A stretch of 64,000 bases of DNA from Candidatus Enterousia sp. (lineage in GTDB: Bacteria > Pseudomonadota > Alphaproteobacteria > Rs-D84): positions 10,254-74,253 of the forward strand of contig JAZQCF010000017.1 of NCBI GenBank assembly GCA_045546075.1. The letters are read 5' to 3'. Of this stretch, positions 20,237 to 25,809 are shown piece after piece. Every line of letters starts with the position of its first letter. Positions within the stretch are counted from its first letter, which is position 1. Below the pieces are notes generated by a model, which was not told the DNA's origin, searched no databases, and was given only the letters and a program-made list of their open reading frames with translations. Position numbers and translations under genes: made by a program.

Positions 20237-20604
20237 TTTCGTGTGATTTCTGGTCAAAAAATGCCAAAATCTTGCACTTTTAGGCAAAAATATCAATTTT
20301 TGAAAAATTAAAAAATGTCAGTGAAAACATAGTGTTGGTTTGATTTGTTGAAGGTTTGCTTGATTTTCTGTGGGGTGGGGCGGCTTATTATGTTATTTGG
20401 GATGTTTTTGTGTAATTAGTGCTCGTTATAAATACAAAATGCGGCATTATGTATCTGGTAAGTGTTGGTGTTATTGGTGCGCGCCGCCATTTATACGGGT
20501 TTTGAATAATTTGTGTTAGTTTTTTGTTCTAGTAATTTGTTTTTACAGTATAAACGCATAATAAAAATTGGGTGGGCTTCGTATGGCGGGGCGGCGATAT
20601 ATAA

Positions 20605-20632
20605 AAGGCGCATAATGTATATTATGTATAGT
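20605..20632 (+). other. dif: XerC/XerD chromosome dimer resolution site (dif)
   Basis: The site reads AAGGCGCATAA-TGTATA-TTATGTATAGT; E. coli dif is GGTGCGCATAA-TGTATA-TTATGTTAAAT. Twenty consecutive nt (GCGCATAATGTATATTATGT) are identical, including the whole central hexamer. It lies in a 1.2-kb gene-free tract. Confidence 0.75.
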
Positions 20633-20667
20633 TATGTCGTGTGGGACACGACATAACTATACATAAT
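20621..20667. repeat. perfect 22-bp inverted repeat with a 3-nt loop, overlapping the dif XerD arm
   Basis: ATTATGTATAGTTATGTCGTGT-GGG-ACACGACATAACTATACATAAT. Confidence 0.9.
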
Positions 20668-20737
20668 ATGAACCCTAATAATCCATTAAGTATTGATATA
20701 ATCCTTATAATTTTGTGTGTTCTGGAAATTTGATTGC

Positions 20738-20765
20738 GTGGCGCATAATCCCATTTGTGCGTGGT
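20738..20765 (+). repeat. degenerate dif-like site (good XerC arm, poor XerD arm)
   Basis: GTGGCGCATAA-TCCCAT-TTGTGCGTGGT. Further XerC-arm-like motifs: TAAACGCATAA at 20551-20561, inverted TAATGCGCC at 20805-20813, and GGGTGCATAAG at 21056-21066. Confidence 0.45.
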
Positions 20766-21238
20766 CTGTTTTCTGTTGCCTTGTCGTTGTTTGTTGTGTG
20801 GCCCTAATGCGCCGCAGACATATAAATATATGCCAAATAAAATTTTGCTCGCTATTAGACGCGTGGACATCTAATAAATATGTGTTCGATGAAAATTTGT
20901 GCGTATTAGACTTTATTGGTCATCCCGTTGAAAAAGTTGGTGTGCGGCCAAAGAAATTTCGGTTTGTGCCTTGGTGGCAATTAAATGCCGTGGACTGGTG
21001 GTGTGCCTGCGGATATTTCGTTTTACAACGGGATGACGACTTTGATATGCGGAATGGGTGCATAAGTCCCGAAAATTTGTAAAAACCGCCCTATTCTGGC
21101 CCCGGAATTTTGAAAAAATGGCGGATTTCTGCGGCTTTGCGGCGGTTTTTGTGTCGAAAAAAGAAGATTTTTTGCCCCAACCCGTCCAAAAATGATATTT
21201 TTGCGCGAATTTTTGTTTGGTTTCAATTTATTTTGCGC

Positions 21239-21268
21239 TTGCGCCGAATTGCGCATGCGTGGTATAAT
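21239..21268 (+). promoter_or_regulatory. sigma70-like promoter with extended -10 (TTGCGC-N18-TGgTATAAT)
   Basis: TATAAT at 21263-21268 is preceded by TGG, and TTGCGC lies at 21239-21244. The promoter is 25 nt upstream of the proposed GTG start. Confidence 0.55.
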
Positions 21269-21292
21269 TTTTTCAAGAAAGGAAGTTTGTTG

Positions 21293-22366
21293 GTGGGATT
21301 GAATATTTCGTCTTTTGTGCGGGTCTTTGTGGTCGCCGTGTTCGGGGTGGTGTGTGCGTCGGGCGGTGCGTTTGCCGCGAATTGTAATCCCGGACAATAT
21401 TATGAATGCGGTGAAGACCCGTATGATAATTCGTGTACCGAATGTGAGTGTGTGTCTTGTCCGGCGGGACAAACCAGTGATGGTTCGGGCGAATTGTATT
21501 ATTGCCCAAATATATATCCTACATCGCCATATGGGGATAGTGGGTGCAGTGATATTTTGTGTTCCGCTGATTATGTCGATTGTCCGGCGGGTGTTGGTGC
21601 ACCGGGCCAAAGGTGTAAAGAATTGACCGATGCGTGCCCCAGTGGCAGTGGTTGCCATGAATATGAACTGTGCAATCTGGCCAATGGCGCACTTACGTAC
21701 GCGGTTACCGGTTCGTGTCATATTGAAGAAGTTTCTATGTGTCAACCCAATACTGTGTCGTGCAACACTTTTCCAATAATGACAACTTATGTGTATTATG
21801 CTGTAACGCAAAACGACCAGACGGGCAATGCCACATGGAATGGTTATAATTCTGCGTGGGATACGATAAATTGTAAATTAAACTCGATGAATAAAAGTGT
21901 TTCTACATTTACTGTGGGTGGTCAAACCGTACCTGTTCATTGTGATGATTTGAATGTCGTTGGTGTGGTTTCGGCCGCATATCAATTTTTCCCACGGACG
22001 GTTTTTGAACCAGTATATTATAATTTAACACGGTTCTATTGTGAAAAATGTCAGGCGGGTTATTTGCCGAACATCCAGTCTTCACCGAACGCGGGTGCGA
22101 ATCTGTTCCCCGAAGGGTATGATGGGGCATATGGTGTGTTGATGTGTGACGAACAGGTTCGTGCGCCGTATTATGCGCCGGGGTGCATGATACCGTACCC
22201 GTTGAATTCGTCATCTATGCCGGACGTATGTCGGGTGTCGTGTCCGGATCGAATGGAAACGATTGTTAATGGTGCGACCGATGACAGTTACTGTCTGCCC
22301 AAGGGTGCCCCGGTGTACGAAGATGATTCTGGTTCTTTCCGTTTGGGAACTGAAATGTGTAATTAA
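21293..22366 (+). CDS. secreted Cys-rich protein (GCC2/GCC3- or furin-repeat-like CxxCPxG modules)
   Basis: ORF 21110-22366 trimmed to the GTG at 21293, 7 nt after AAGGAAG and downstream of the promoter. It has a signal peptide (...VVAVFGVVCASGGAFA) and many Cys, for example CTECECVSCPAGQTSDG. Confidence 0.65.
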   Translation: MGLNISSFVRVFVVAVFGVVCASGGAFAANCNPGQYYECGEDPYDNSCTECECVSCPAGQTSDGSGELYYCPNIYPTSPYGDSGCSDILCSADYVDCPAGVGAPGQRCKELTDACPSGSGCHEYELCNLANGALTYAVTGSCHIEEVSMCQPNTVSCNTFPIMTTYVYYAVTQNDQTGNATWNGYNSAWDTINCKLNSMNKSVSTFTVGGQTVPVHCDDLNVVGVVSAAYQFFPRTVFEPVYYNLTRFYCEKCQAGYLPNIQSSPNAGANLFPEGYDGAYGVLMCDEQVRAPYYAPGCMIPYPLNSSSMPDVCRVSCPDRMETIVNGATDDSYCLPKGAPVYEDDSGSFRLGTEMCN

Positions 22367-22384
22367 GGTTTATATGAAAATATA

Positions 22385-22412
22385 AAAACCGCCCTATTTC
22401 GGGCGGTTTTGG
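22385..22412. terminator. bidirectional Rho-independent terminator
   Basis: AAAAA-CCGCCC-TATTTC-GGGCGG-TTTT between convergent genes. Confidence 0.75.
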
Positions 22413-22428
22413 TTTGGCGGTTAAAATT

Positions 22429-23739
22429 TTATTTCGCCGTTGCCGGTTGGAATAATTCCGCCGGTTTTACCGCCTTTTCTTTTTGCTTAACGTGGGTCAG
22501 CATCGCATCCAAAGATTTGCGTTCAAAAATCATTCCGCGCAACATTGTTAATGCATTTTGATTCTTGTTATAGAATTCAAAAATCTGTTTCGGGTCTGGA
22601 TAGCGTGCGGCCTCGGCCCAGATGGCGTTTTGCAAATCGTCGCGCGTGACCTCGACCTTGTTGGCACTGCCCCACTCGGCCAAAATCAGGCCCAATTTTA
22701 CGCGACGTTCGGCCTCTTTGCGTTCTTTTTTCTCGTCAAATTTGCAATCGCCGTCGCATTTGCCATCACAGTGTGCGTGATGATGTTCGTGTTCGTTTTT
22801 CGCCATTTGTAATTCTTGGGCAACGACGACTTCGGGCAAATCTAATTTAACCTTGTCCGCCAAGATGTCCAATAATTCATTGCGCATTTCTTGCTGGGAC
22901 GCGGCGGCGTATTGTTCGTTCAATATATTGCGGACGTGTTCGCGTAATTTTTCGACCGTGTCAAAACCAATCGATTTTGCAAATTCATCATTCAATTCCG
23001 GCAAGATATGTTTGCGAACCTCGTGCAGGGTGATGGCAAAACGTGCCGCCCGGCCCGCCAGGTTTTCCGCATGATAATCTTTGGGGAACTTTACATTGAC
23101 ATCAAATTCATCGCCCGATTTGTGGCCGATAATTTGGTCTTCGAATCCCGGAATAAATGAACCAGAACCCAAAACCAAGTGATGCATTTTTGCCGCGCCA
23201 CCTTCGAATGCGTCTTTGCCAATGTATCCGGTAAAGTCAATGACCGCGGTATCGCCGTTTTCGGCCTTGTATTTCGCCGGTTGTTTTTCGGCGGTTGAAC
23301 GCGCACGGCGCAGGTTTTCGATTGCGGTGTCAACCTCGGCCTCGTCCAATTTGGTTGTCTTTTTTGTGACGGTGAATTTTTCCAAATCTATTTCCGGCAG
23401 TGTTGGCAAAATATCAAATTCCAACGTATATTCTGCATTCGACCCAATTTCCCATTTCCCCAGGTCTGCACGTGGTGCACCCGCAAGGCGAATTTTCTTT
23501 TCGGTTGCGTATTTTTCCAAATCGGCGTTCATCAATTTGTCGATTGCATCCGCCATGGCGTTTGCATTATATTTCTGGCGCAGGACGGACAGTGGCACGT
23601 GGCCCGCACGGAACCCCGGCATTTTGGCATCCGCCCCGTACTTAGTCAGTATTTCATCGGCGGCGGCCTGGATTTCATCGGCGGTCAAAACACCGGTTAC
23701 AGAATAATGTAAATCTTTGATTTTTTCTTTTTTAATCAT
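22429..23739 (-). CDS. tig: trigger factor
   Basis: ORF trimmed to MIKKEKIKDLHYSV.... It contains a PPIase (FKBP-type) middle domain (GDTAVIDFTGYIGKDAFEGG) and has typical length, apart from a His/Cys-rich insert in the C-terminal domain. Confidence 0.9.
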   Translation of the reverse strand: MIKKEKIKDLHYSVTGVLTADEIQAAADEILTKYGADAKMPGFRAGHVPLSVLRQKYNANAMADAIDKLMNADLEKYATEKKIRLAGAPRADLGKWEIGSNAEYTLEFDILPTLPEIDLEKFTVTKKTTKLDEAEVDTAIENLRRARSTAEKQPAKYKAENGDTAVIDFTGYIGKDAFEGGAAKMHHLVLGSGSFIPGFEDQIIGHKSGDEFDVNVKFPKDYHAENLAGRAARFAITLHEVRKHILPELNDEFAKSIGFDTVEKLREHVRNILNEQYAAASQQEMRNELLDILADKVKLDLPEVVVAQELQMAKNEHEHHHAHCDGKCDGDCKFDEKKERKEAERRVKLGLILAEWGSANKVEVTRDDLQNAIWAEAARYPDPKQIFEFYNKNQNALTMLRGMIFERKSLDAMLTHVKQKEKAVKPAELFQPATAK

Positions 23740-23877
23740 AATTTTCCCTTTATATAGACAGATTTGCCGGGCAATTATACACATATTTTTTTGTAAATGC
23801 AAGTGTTAGTGGCGCAATTAAAAACCCCACCGTTTGCGTTTTATGATGGGGAATTTGGTAAGTCGTTGATTTGTTGT

Positions 23878-24381
23878 TTAATAATTATAGCATTGGCACG
23901 TGCCACCACTGCAATGTGGAGTTTTACACTCTGCGCCAACAATCCCGACACAATCCGCATTTGTTGTGCACTGTTTTGCCGTAACATTAACATCAATCAG
24001 GTTCCATAACAGACAGTTTTCGTCCGTGCCTTGGCCCGGTTCGGCATCCCATTCTACGCACTGCTTATGTGTAACCGTTTTTTCTTGGGATGGTATCGCA
24101 GAAAATGCGGCGCGTGCGGTAATCAGTTTATCGCCGTCATCGTCATAATCAAAATCAACGATGCCCGCATTATAAATCCCGCGTTCACCGATTTGTCCCG
24201 CGGTATCAGTATATGTGACAACGGTTTCGCCGGGTGTATCTTCGTTTGTGCCCGCAACCGGGATTGTTGCCTGGCGCGTGGTATCAACGTACGTTTTTGA
24301 TGTAACGGTTGTATCCGCGAATACTGAATTAATTGCGATTATTGATGCAACCGCACCAATGAATAATGTTTTTTTGCTCAT
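23878..24381 (-). CDS. small secreted protein, paralog family member (167 aa)
   Basis: MSKKTLFIGAVASIIAINSVFADTTVTSKTYVDT..., ENCLLWNL, and a Cys-rich C-terminus. The RBS is AAAGGGGAACATATG. Confidence 0.75.
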   Translation of the reverse strand: MSKKTLFIGAVASIIAINSVFADTTVTSKTYVDTTRQATIPVAGTNEDTPGETVVTYTDTAGQIGERGIYNAGIVDFDYDDDGDKLITARAAFSAIPSQEKTVTHKQCVEWDAEPGQGTDENCLLWNLIDVNVTAKQCTTNADCVGIVGAECKTPHCSGGTCQCYNY

Positions 24382-24411
24382 ATGTTCCCCTTTATTCCTA
24401 TGATTAAAAGT

Positions 24412-24526
24412 GTAACAAAAACGAACGTTTTTGTCCAGTGCTTTTTTGGAAAAAATTATTCAGTAAAATCAACAACAGTAAAGTCCGCAAAATGGGGGGA
24501 CAAAAACGTTCGTTTTTTTTGACCAC
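24412..24526 (-). promoter_or_regulatory. conserved 5' module of the secreted-paralog family, copy 3, with the inner segment inverted relative to copies 1 and 2
   Basis: The outer arms match those of copies 1 and 2 in gene orientation. The junction CGTTTTTGTCCAGTGCTTTTTT is gene-distal in copies 1 and 2 but gene-proximal here (24422-24448). Confidence 0.65.
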
Positions 24527-24571
24527 TGTGGGGCGCGTGAAACCGTGTTTTTTTGGGGATTGTTATATGTT

Positions 24572-24606
24572 TTATAAAAATAAACCCCGTATTTGATACG
24601 GGGTTT
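24572..24606 (-). terminator. Rho-independent terminator of rplM-rpsI
   Basis: AACCCCGTA-TTTGA-TACGGGGTT; on the minus strand it is followed by TATTTTTAT. Confidence 0.7.
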
Positions 24607-24631
24607 GATACTTTCCAAACAAACGTGATGT

Positions 24632-25168
24632 TTAACGTTTGCTGAACTGGGTTGAACGACGTGCCTTGCGGAAACCATAGTGTTTACGTTCGACAACACG
24701 GCTGTCGCGGGTCAAGAACCCGGCCGCCTTTAATGCCGCGCGCAGTTCCGGTTCGTTCTTTTCCAATGCCTTGGAAATACCGTGTTTTACGGCACCCGCC
24801 TGGCCCGACAGGCCGCCACCCATAACCATTACGAATGCGTCATAGGCACCTTCGCGTTTTGTTACCGCAAATGGTTGATTCAAAATCATCTGCAACACCG
24901 GACGGCGGAAATATTCAACCATCGGTTTGTTGTTGATAACAATGTTGCCCTTGCCCGGCATCAAATATACGCGCGCGACAGAATCTTTACGTTTGCCGGT
25001 TGCGTAAATCGCGTTGTTCAATTTTGGGACGCTAACGCTTGCGGTTGTCTTTTTTGTCGCCGCGGTTTTTGTCGCGGTCTTGGCCGTTGTGGTCTTTTTT
25101 GCTGTCGGGGCCGCTTTCTTAGCGGTTGCCGTCGCTTTCTTGACGGTTGTTTTTTTTGCTTCTGTCAT
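24632..25168 (-). CDS. rpsI: 30S ribosomal protein S9 with a Lys/Ala/Thr-rich N-terminal extension
   Basis: The C-terminal 130 aa are canonical S9 (...[19 protein letters not shown]..., ending [11 protein letters not shown]). The first 50 or so aa are AKKTT-type low complexity. Confidence 0.93.
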
Positions 25169-25641
25169 TATTCGCCCCTTTTGTTTTTACGATTGAGTTT
25201 CGCAAAATCAATCACAACCGGATTTTGCGCGGCGTGTTTGTGTTCTGCGCCTGCATACACGTGCAGTTTGGTCAGGCGTTTGTCCGCCAATGCCACCGCC
25301 GTGCGGCGACCCATCATACGCTTAACCGCGTTTTTAACCAACATTGTCGGTTTTTCCGCGCGCATTTGGCCCAATGTGCGTTCTTTGATTCCGCCCGGGT
25401 ATGTTGTGTGCCAATAGAATTTTGTCTTGTCGGCCTTGGTGCCGGACAGTGCCACTTTATCGGCATTGATAATAATCACATGGTCGCCGCAATCCATATT
25501 CGGTGTCCATGTGGCCTTGTTCTTGCCGCGCAGGATGTTCGCGGTATATGCCGCCAAACGCCCTAACGTGCAATCGGTCGCGTCAATCAAATACCATTTG
25601 GCATCCAATTCACACTTTTTTAACGATTTTGTCGTTGCCAT
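25168..25641 (-). CDS. rplM: 50S ribosomal protein L13
   Basis: 157-aa ORF: [33 protein letters not shown].... Sits in the classic rplM-rpsI arrangement. Confidence 0.95.
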
Positions 25642-25809
25642 TTTTGTTTTACCTTTGTTTGTTATTAAAAGTTCGCCCTATTATGTCGCAACCGCGCAGA
25701 AAAGTCAAGAAAAATCGATATGGTATTATGATACCGTAAAAAACAAAAAACTTGATAATGGCGGTTATCTTTGATAACCTTTGGTTTGTTCGTATTATGG
25801 AGTATCAAA

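Follow-up and report, generated by a model that had tools for sequence, protein, structure and literature searches.

The dif site of the 'Candidatus Enterousia' genome analysed here is fused, at its XerD-binding arm, to an inverted half-site that retains a XerD arm and part of the central region. The palindrome seen at this locus is not a separate element but is built from three parts: the dif XerD arm itself, a short inner palindrome and a XerD-only half-site in inverted orientation, the latter being made up of 3 nt of the central region, the 11-nt arm and GTTT. Comparative searches revealed that one family of reduced-genome gut bacteria has such extra XerD half-sites, often as arrays, fused to the XerD arm of dif.

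Results

In the window, by which we mean the whole stretch of 64,000 nucleotides analysed, dif lies on the + strand as the 28-mer AAGGCGCATAA-TGTATA-TTATGTATAGT (20605–20632) in an 11-6-11 organisation, with the XerC-binding arm at 20605–20615, the central region at 20616–20621 and the XerD-binding arm at 20622–20632. The arms were assigned by alignment to the Escherichia coli dif, with which 20 consecutive bases (20608–20627) are identical. The identification of the site as dif in the first-pass annotation was confirmed by its closeness to the consensus, its uniqueness in the genome and its conservation among genus relatives: the XerC arm is unique in the genome and invariant in 24 of 24 relatives, the dif core is kept in the same number, and dif occurs as a single copy in the 0.97-Mb assembly (25 contigs, 94% complete).

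A repeat search across the whole window identified the dif palindrome as the longest perfect hairpin of the 64 kb. Its arms, ATATTATGTATAGTTATGTCGTGT (20619–20642) and ACACGACATAACTATACATAATAT (20646–20669), neither of them assigned to a strand, are 24 nt long, 100% complementary and separated by the 3-nt loop GGG (20643–20645). A perfect palindrome of 22 bp had been claimed before; the palindrome proved to be real and flawless, but its arms are 2 bp longer each. Folding as single-stranded DNA gave −26.9 kcal/mol compared with −8.05 ± 2.09 kcal/mol in shuffles (z = −9.0), none of the 200 shuffles folding as well.

The left arm begins at A20619, the fourth base of the dif central hexamer, and contains the complete XerD arm; the right arm is the reverse complement of ATA, the XerD arm and 10 further bases. 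Because the left arm starts at this base, the right arm holds the reverse complement of the XerD arm (20656–20666) followed by TAT (20667–20669). Together these form the inverted half-site on the − strand (20656–20669), which bears out the earlier proposal that the XerD half-site is duplicated in inverted orientation. Between both XerD arms lies the species-specific inner palindrome TATGTCGTGT-GGG-ACACGACATA (20633–20655, likewise without assigned strand). The general layout is dif, a short self-palindromic spacer and a second copy of ATA and the XerD arm, in inverted orientation. This genome has one inverted unit with no tandem repeat, and a genome-wide motif search found no further exact XerD half-sites elsewhere in it.

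Several other features were observed around dif. In about 10 species (loci L040, L045, L056, L087, L089, L111, L123, L124 and L127), a collapsed pseudo-dif, GCGG-ATTATGTATAGTT, which lacks the central region so that the end of the XerC arm joins the XerD arm directly, occurs 250–460 nt from dif on its XerC side and in direct orientation; the copy in our genome is decayed (GCGGCATTATGTAT, 20441–20454). Approximately 110 nt past the XerD arm of dif, a pseudo-site with a XerC arm only, GGCGCATAAT-CCCATT-TGTGCG (20740–20762), appeared as a weak hairpin in the terminator scan. Further downstream, the motif ACATATAAATATATGCC...TTTTGCTCGCTATTAGACGCG (approximately 20820–20870) recurs right of dif at loci L112, L080 and L108 and overlaps a promoter-like call at 20815–20843. 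A tlyA-like gene (S4 and FtsJ domains) and leuS follow 0.5–2.7 kb after dif in most genus relatives; in this genome, about 4 kb of extra sequence (21110–25770), comprising a 418-aa ORF without family match, trigger factor and a 167-aa ORF, precedes them. No array-linked factor was found encoded next door, the conserved neighbours being the tlyA-like gene and leuS.

'Candidatus Enterousia' sits in Rs-D84, an order of reduced-genome gut Alphaproteobacteria (PMC12306168). The organisms considered here are uncultured. Searching 185,579 species genomes with the layout pattern ATATTATGTATAG-N12-42-ATACATAATAT yielded 93 matching stretches, located on contigs of 'Candidatus Enterousia' and of gut Alphaproteobacteria of ruminants, horses and chickens. 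In 89 of these 93 stretches the XerC arm is one-sided, with 11–14 of 14 bases matching on the left and 1–7 of 14 on the right. Within the order, the palindrome was present in 94 of 328 genomes, all belonging to one family. Besides the window's own genome, 93 of 298 other members of this family carry it, as do 88 of 256 genomes of the genus, and 0 of 29 genomes from five other Rs-D84 families match. A reversed-pattern control gave 0 matches in the order-wide scan. The comparison of related dif regions, for which the first-pass annotation had called, shows that the layout is not strain-specific, as it recurs in about 90 independently assembled species genomes. An assembly artefact was considered and ruled out, since these are about 90 independent metagenome-assembled genomes from different studies and assemblers, with species-specific compensatory differences.

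The non-coding DNA around dif is unalignable between species whose LeuRS is 66–84% identical to that of this genome. Of 25 genus genomes sampled regardless of the palindrome, 12 carry one or more inverted half-sites, in 11 of these 12 as the palindrome beside dif. Presence and absence of the palindrome are interleaved on a LeuRS tree of members with the same range of identity to this genome's LeuRS, for which the simplest history is an ancestral element followed by many losses. Repeated loss within the genus suggests that the element, and with it the inverted half-site, is dispensable and not essential.

All 86 distinct species sequences fold as one hairpin, with 17–26 Watson-Crick pairs (median 22). 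The inner 12–38 nt differ in every one of the 86 sequences and are still self-complementary. As a control, the left half of one species was joined to the right half of another: real hairpins reached a mean energy of −14.5 kcal/mol versus −10.4 kcal/mol for these two-species arm chimeras, and only 6.5% of the chimeras attained the median of the real hairpins. This control was used instead of an alignment with MAFFT and RNAalifold, which recovers only 11 invariant pairs because indels and bulges misalign the inner stems. Perfect hairpins are restricted to 2 of 86 sequences, that of this genome among them, and the outer end of the right arm often has a 1-nt bulge (AAACGTATAC or AAACATATAC). The mismatches comprise 24 G·T and 14 A·C, an excess that is not significant. 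Total palindrome length is trimodal (39–42, 49–53 and 58–64 nt). The palindrome always ends in ATAT, the middle of the central region, which places its boundary at TGT/ATA at every locus.

In 57 of 86 species sequences, the inverted half-site heads a tandem array that lies directly on the XerD side of dif. Two units were counted in 27 sequences, three in 10, four in 14, five in 4 and seven in 2, all of which are lower bounds, as the arrays often reach contig ends. Each unit terminates in AAAC(N)ATACATAATAT, all units share one orientation, and forward half-site copies are essentially missing right of dif. The spacing between units is mostly 43–76 nt, with modes near 45, 55, 68 and 74 nt; an analysis of helical phasing revealed no clean 10.5-bp period in it. 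A small hairpin adjoins the half-site in each unit (median z = −2.1; z < −2 in 28 of 54 units). In later units the forward XerD arm is decayed, e.g. to TTCATAATAGT at locus L125. The inverted half-site (AAC.ATACATAATAT), conserved across species in first and later units, is exact in later units even where the remaining unit is only 38–70% identical, a conservation that is partly circular, since the motif itself was used to find the units. Some arrays consist of near-identical repeats, such as that of locus L058 with 98% identity between units. Arrays were often seen to meet contig ends (L058, L004 in G012 and other loci), and half-site arrays probably break short-read assemblies at dif.

ParB, FtsK, XerC, XerD, GyrA and ParC are all present in this genome. 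Profile comparison assigned the C1 protein as XerD-like (286 bits to the XerD model versus 243 to XerC) and the C8 protein as XerC-like (284 bits to the XerC model versus 223 to XerD), and the encoded FtsK (744 aa) includes a gamma domain (FtsK-gamma 78 bits, FtsK motor domain 206 bits). The KOPS-like motif GGGNAGGG changes strand at dif: on a 515-kb contig of a congener (G003), 12 forward motifs and 1 reverse motif lie on the left and 1 forward and 5 reverse motifs on the right, and our own contig has 0 forward and 6 reverse motifs right of dif. No match to the SMC model was obtained in 41 Rs-D84 genomes, i.e. our own (94% complete) and 40 relatives, and ScpB was not found in our own genome. 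Compensation for a missing topoisomerase IV was also considered as an explanation and ruled out, as two GyrA/ParC paralogues are present.

On the G003 contig (C1), GC and GC3 skew switch about 90 kb beyond dif on the XerD side, and dnaA (G003:C1:180556) was seen inside a positively skewed stretch. The own contig shows no GC or GC3 skew switch within 63 kb beyond dif, which places the switch at least 63 kb away. As the skew does not switch at dif, replication forks seem to enter dif at its XerC side and to leave it at its XerD side. A role of the palindrome in fork fusion, which had been offered as an option in the first-pass annotation, is unlikely because the skew switch of the G003 contig lies about 90 kb past dif. 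Judged by GC skew, the + strand at the palindrome is the lagging-strand template.

Discussion

Of the functions raised earlier for the palindrome, a modulation of dif activity remains the best reading, as something that we infer. The inverted half-site may well serve as an accessory site for XerD, dispensable but able to modulate Xer recombination at dif; both the binding of XerD and an effect on recombination are presumed. Extra XerD protomers would bind the inverted half-sites beside dif and a nucleoprotein complex would form, possibly helped when the first unit extrudes as a hairpin or cruciform; at dif, this accessory complex could modulate how synapsis proceeds, in which order strands are exchanged or how FtsK activates the reaction. 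More tentatively, the tandem XerD-only half-sites with their small hairpins might represent a new class of cis-acting dif accessory element, which would recruit XerD, possibly extrude a Holliday-junction-like cruciform centred on the central region, and set the timing and direction of XerCD recombination. A point against an accessory role is that FtsK and KOPS-like motifs are present, so that no extra directionality device is obviously needed.

Even if they had no function, the copies could stay alike through quasi-palindrome template-switch correction and unequal exchange. The whole arrangement would then be a by-product of 'molecular drive': an ancestral fold-back or template switch duplicated the XerD arm as an inverted copy, the arms are kept alike by quasi-palindrome correction, slippage or unequal exchange resizes the arrays, and no protein user is needed. 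In line with such an origin, roughly half of the genus members sampled have lost or lack the element and are interspersed with the others on the tree, its copy number is highly variable (1 to 7), units in some arrays are nearly identical (98% at L058) and perfect hairpins are scarce (2 of 86). However, the 11–14-nt half-site is identical in about 90 species with otherwise unalignable intergenic DNA, it is exact in units diverged to 38–70% elsewhere as well as in units that have no complementary forward arm as a copy source, and the ATAT junction is the same everywhere; we consider a functionless origin unlikely. Alternatively, the DNA structure itself could be functional, with the first unit extruding as a hairpin of the lagging-strand template or as a cruciform and the binding of XerD to the extra copy being secondary. 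The four-way junction of a cruciform, located in the middle of the central region, might act as a Holliday-junction mimic or as a lock that responds to supercoiling and separates the XerC arm from the XerD arm. This would agree with the species-specific compensatory complementarity of the inner spacer, with a palindrome boundary fixed at the centre of the central region at all loci, with the persistence of inner hairpins in later units (z < −2 in 28 of 54, median z = −2.1) and with the + strand being the lagging-strand template by GC skew. Yet later array units retain the half-site and not the long stem, most hairpins are bulged or mismatched, and G·T mismatches are not in significant excess over A·C (24 versus 14), and a structural role of this kind appears distinctly improbable to us.

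An analogy with CTX-phi and other IMEX had been drawn in the first-pass annotation. As a rival explanation of this kind, the locus would be a scar or attachment junction of an integrative element exploiting Xer with a CTX-phi-type hairpin attP, its left junction consisting of dif arm, loop and inverted XerD arm. A CTX-type junction derived on paper indeed predicts the order of dif, loop and inverted XerD arm, and partial XerC-arm-like motifs and collapsed pseudo-dif copies occur nearby. The analogy nevertheless broke down: the palindrome reaches no further than halfway into the central region, the inverted XerD arm is not followed by an inverted XerC arm (1–7 of 14 bases on the right versus 11–14 of 14 on the left), a second dif is absent from the genome, and no element genes were found, the tlyA-like gene and leuS lying within 0.5–2.7 kb in most relatives. 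The junction is moreover identical in about 90 species, and all 27 matches on viral contigs were without a XerC arm and, at 25–44% G+C of their contigs, resemble chance AT-rich palindromes, leaving no matching viral contig. The IMEX reading is largely refuted, and we give it very little weight. If dif just happened to be overlapped by a terminator, promoter or structured RNA, this would account for a long stable hairpin and for the CATAAT in the half-site, which is like a −10 box, but no T-tract follows the palindrome and no terminator or promoter was called at it, Rfam gave sub-threshold miRNA look-alikes only, and flanking genes vary in orientation and lie at median distances of about 220 nt (left) and 590 nt (right), which makes this explanation highly improbable. 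The occurrence near dif of half-sites that have a XerD arm but lack a XerC arm also recalls XDS, reportedly described by Karaboja et al. in 2021 as XerD-only binding sites of Bacillus subtilis, where XerD is said to unload SMC. XDS of B. subtilis are cited in passages of PMC11840125 and PMC11894783, and the passage in the former, citing Karaboja 2021, describes an artificial XDS array as a block to SMC translocation. An equivalent unloading of SMC condensin at the terminus by XerD on XerD-only sites is contradicted here by the absence of SMC from our own genome and the 40 order relatives searched, and of ScpB from our own genome; the sites are also clustered at dif and not dispersed, with no other exact half-sites in the genome. 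Because SMC was not found in the genomes of the lineage that were searched, a B. subtilis-type SMC-unloading site is extremely improbable.

Returning to the accessory XerD-binding site as the favoured reading, several consequences would follow if XerD binds the half-sites. A chromosomal dif could then bear recombinase-only accessory sites, and XerD-only sites would gain a role that is independent of SMC, a second use in a lineage that lost SMC. The species themselves, which range from 0 to 7 copies, would furthermore provide a natural series for testing the tuning of Xer recombination.

Comparison with known systems

Chromosomal dif is usually described as a bare 28-bp core with control from FtsK. 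Plasmid sites (cer, psi) and transposon resolution sites are known to have accessory sequences. The remark of the first-pass annotation that it knew of no described dif with such an architecture agrees with a literature search on dif, XerD, hairpins and half-sites, which found none; in the full-text literature searched, there was no description of a dif with an inverted XerD half-site or array. Judged by this search, a dif with recombinase-only accessory half-sites would appear to be a new variant on known dif sites.

With the dif/XerCD-FtsK system of the E. coli type, the present locus has in common the 11-6-11 site, 20 consecutive identical bases, the single copy, encoded XerC, XerD and FtsK-gamma proteins and the converging polarity of GGGNAGGG. 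In contrast to that system, an inverted XerD half-site or array abuts the XerD arm, and between the site and the GC-skew switch there are about 90 kb in the one relative that has a long contig and no less than 63 kb in our own genome. Inverted Xer-binding arms within a dif-associated hairpin are likewise found in the forked hairpin attP(+) of CTX-phi. The attP stem of CTX-phi-type IMEX contains the arms for both XerD and XerC, flanking a central region that is left unpaired, whereas the stem described here is composed of the XerD arm and 3 nt of the central region with no XerC arm, and is chromosomal, vertically conserved and without an attached element.

XDS and the Enterousia sites are both dif-like, retaining the XerD arm along with some of the central region while lacking a XerC arm, and XDS are placed in the terminus region. 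The Enterousia sites differ in being tandem, adjoining dif, inverted relative to its XerD arm and each preceded by a small hairpin, and they occur in a lineage without detectable SMC-ScpAB to unload. A precedent is the internal resolution site of Tn4430, where the dispensable TnpI motifs DR1-DR2 form a tandem flanking the core on one side and determine both selectivity and strand-exchange order (PMC2847244). That system involves another recombinase and another replicon, while at dif there are two recombinases, the XerD motif alone is repeated, the copy number is variable and the function is putative; both have extra motifs of the recombinase-binding type that are dispensable and arranged in tandem on one side of the core. 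The half-sites at dif, read as accessory sites, would act in the manner of these extra motifs beside the TnpI core site of Tn4430.
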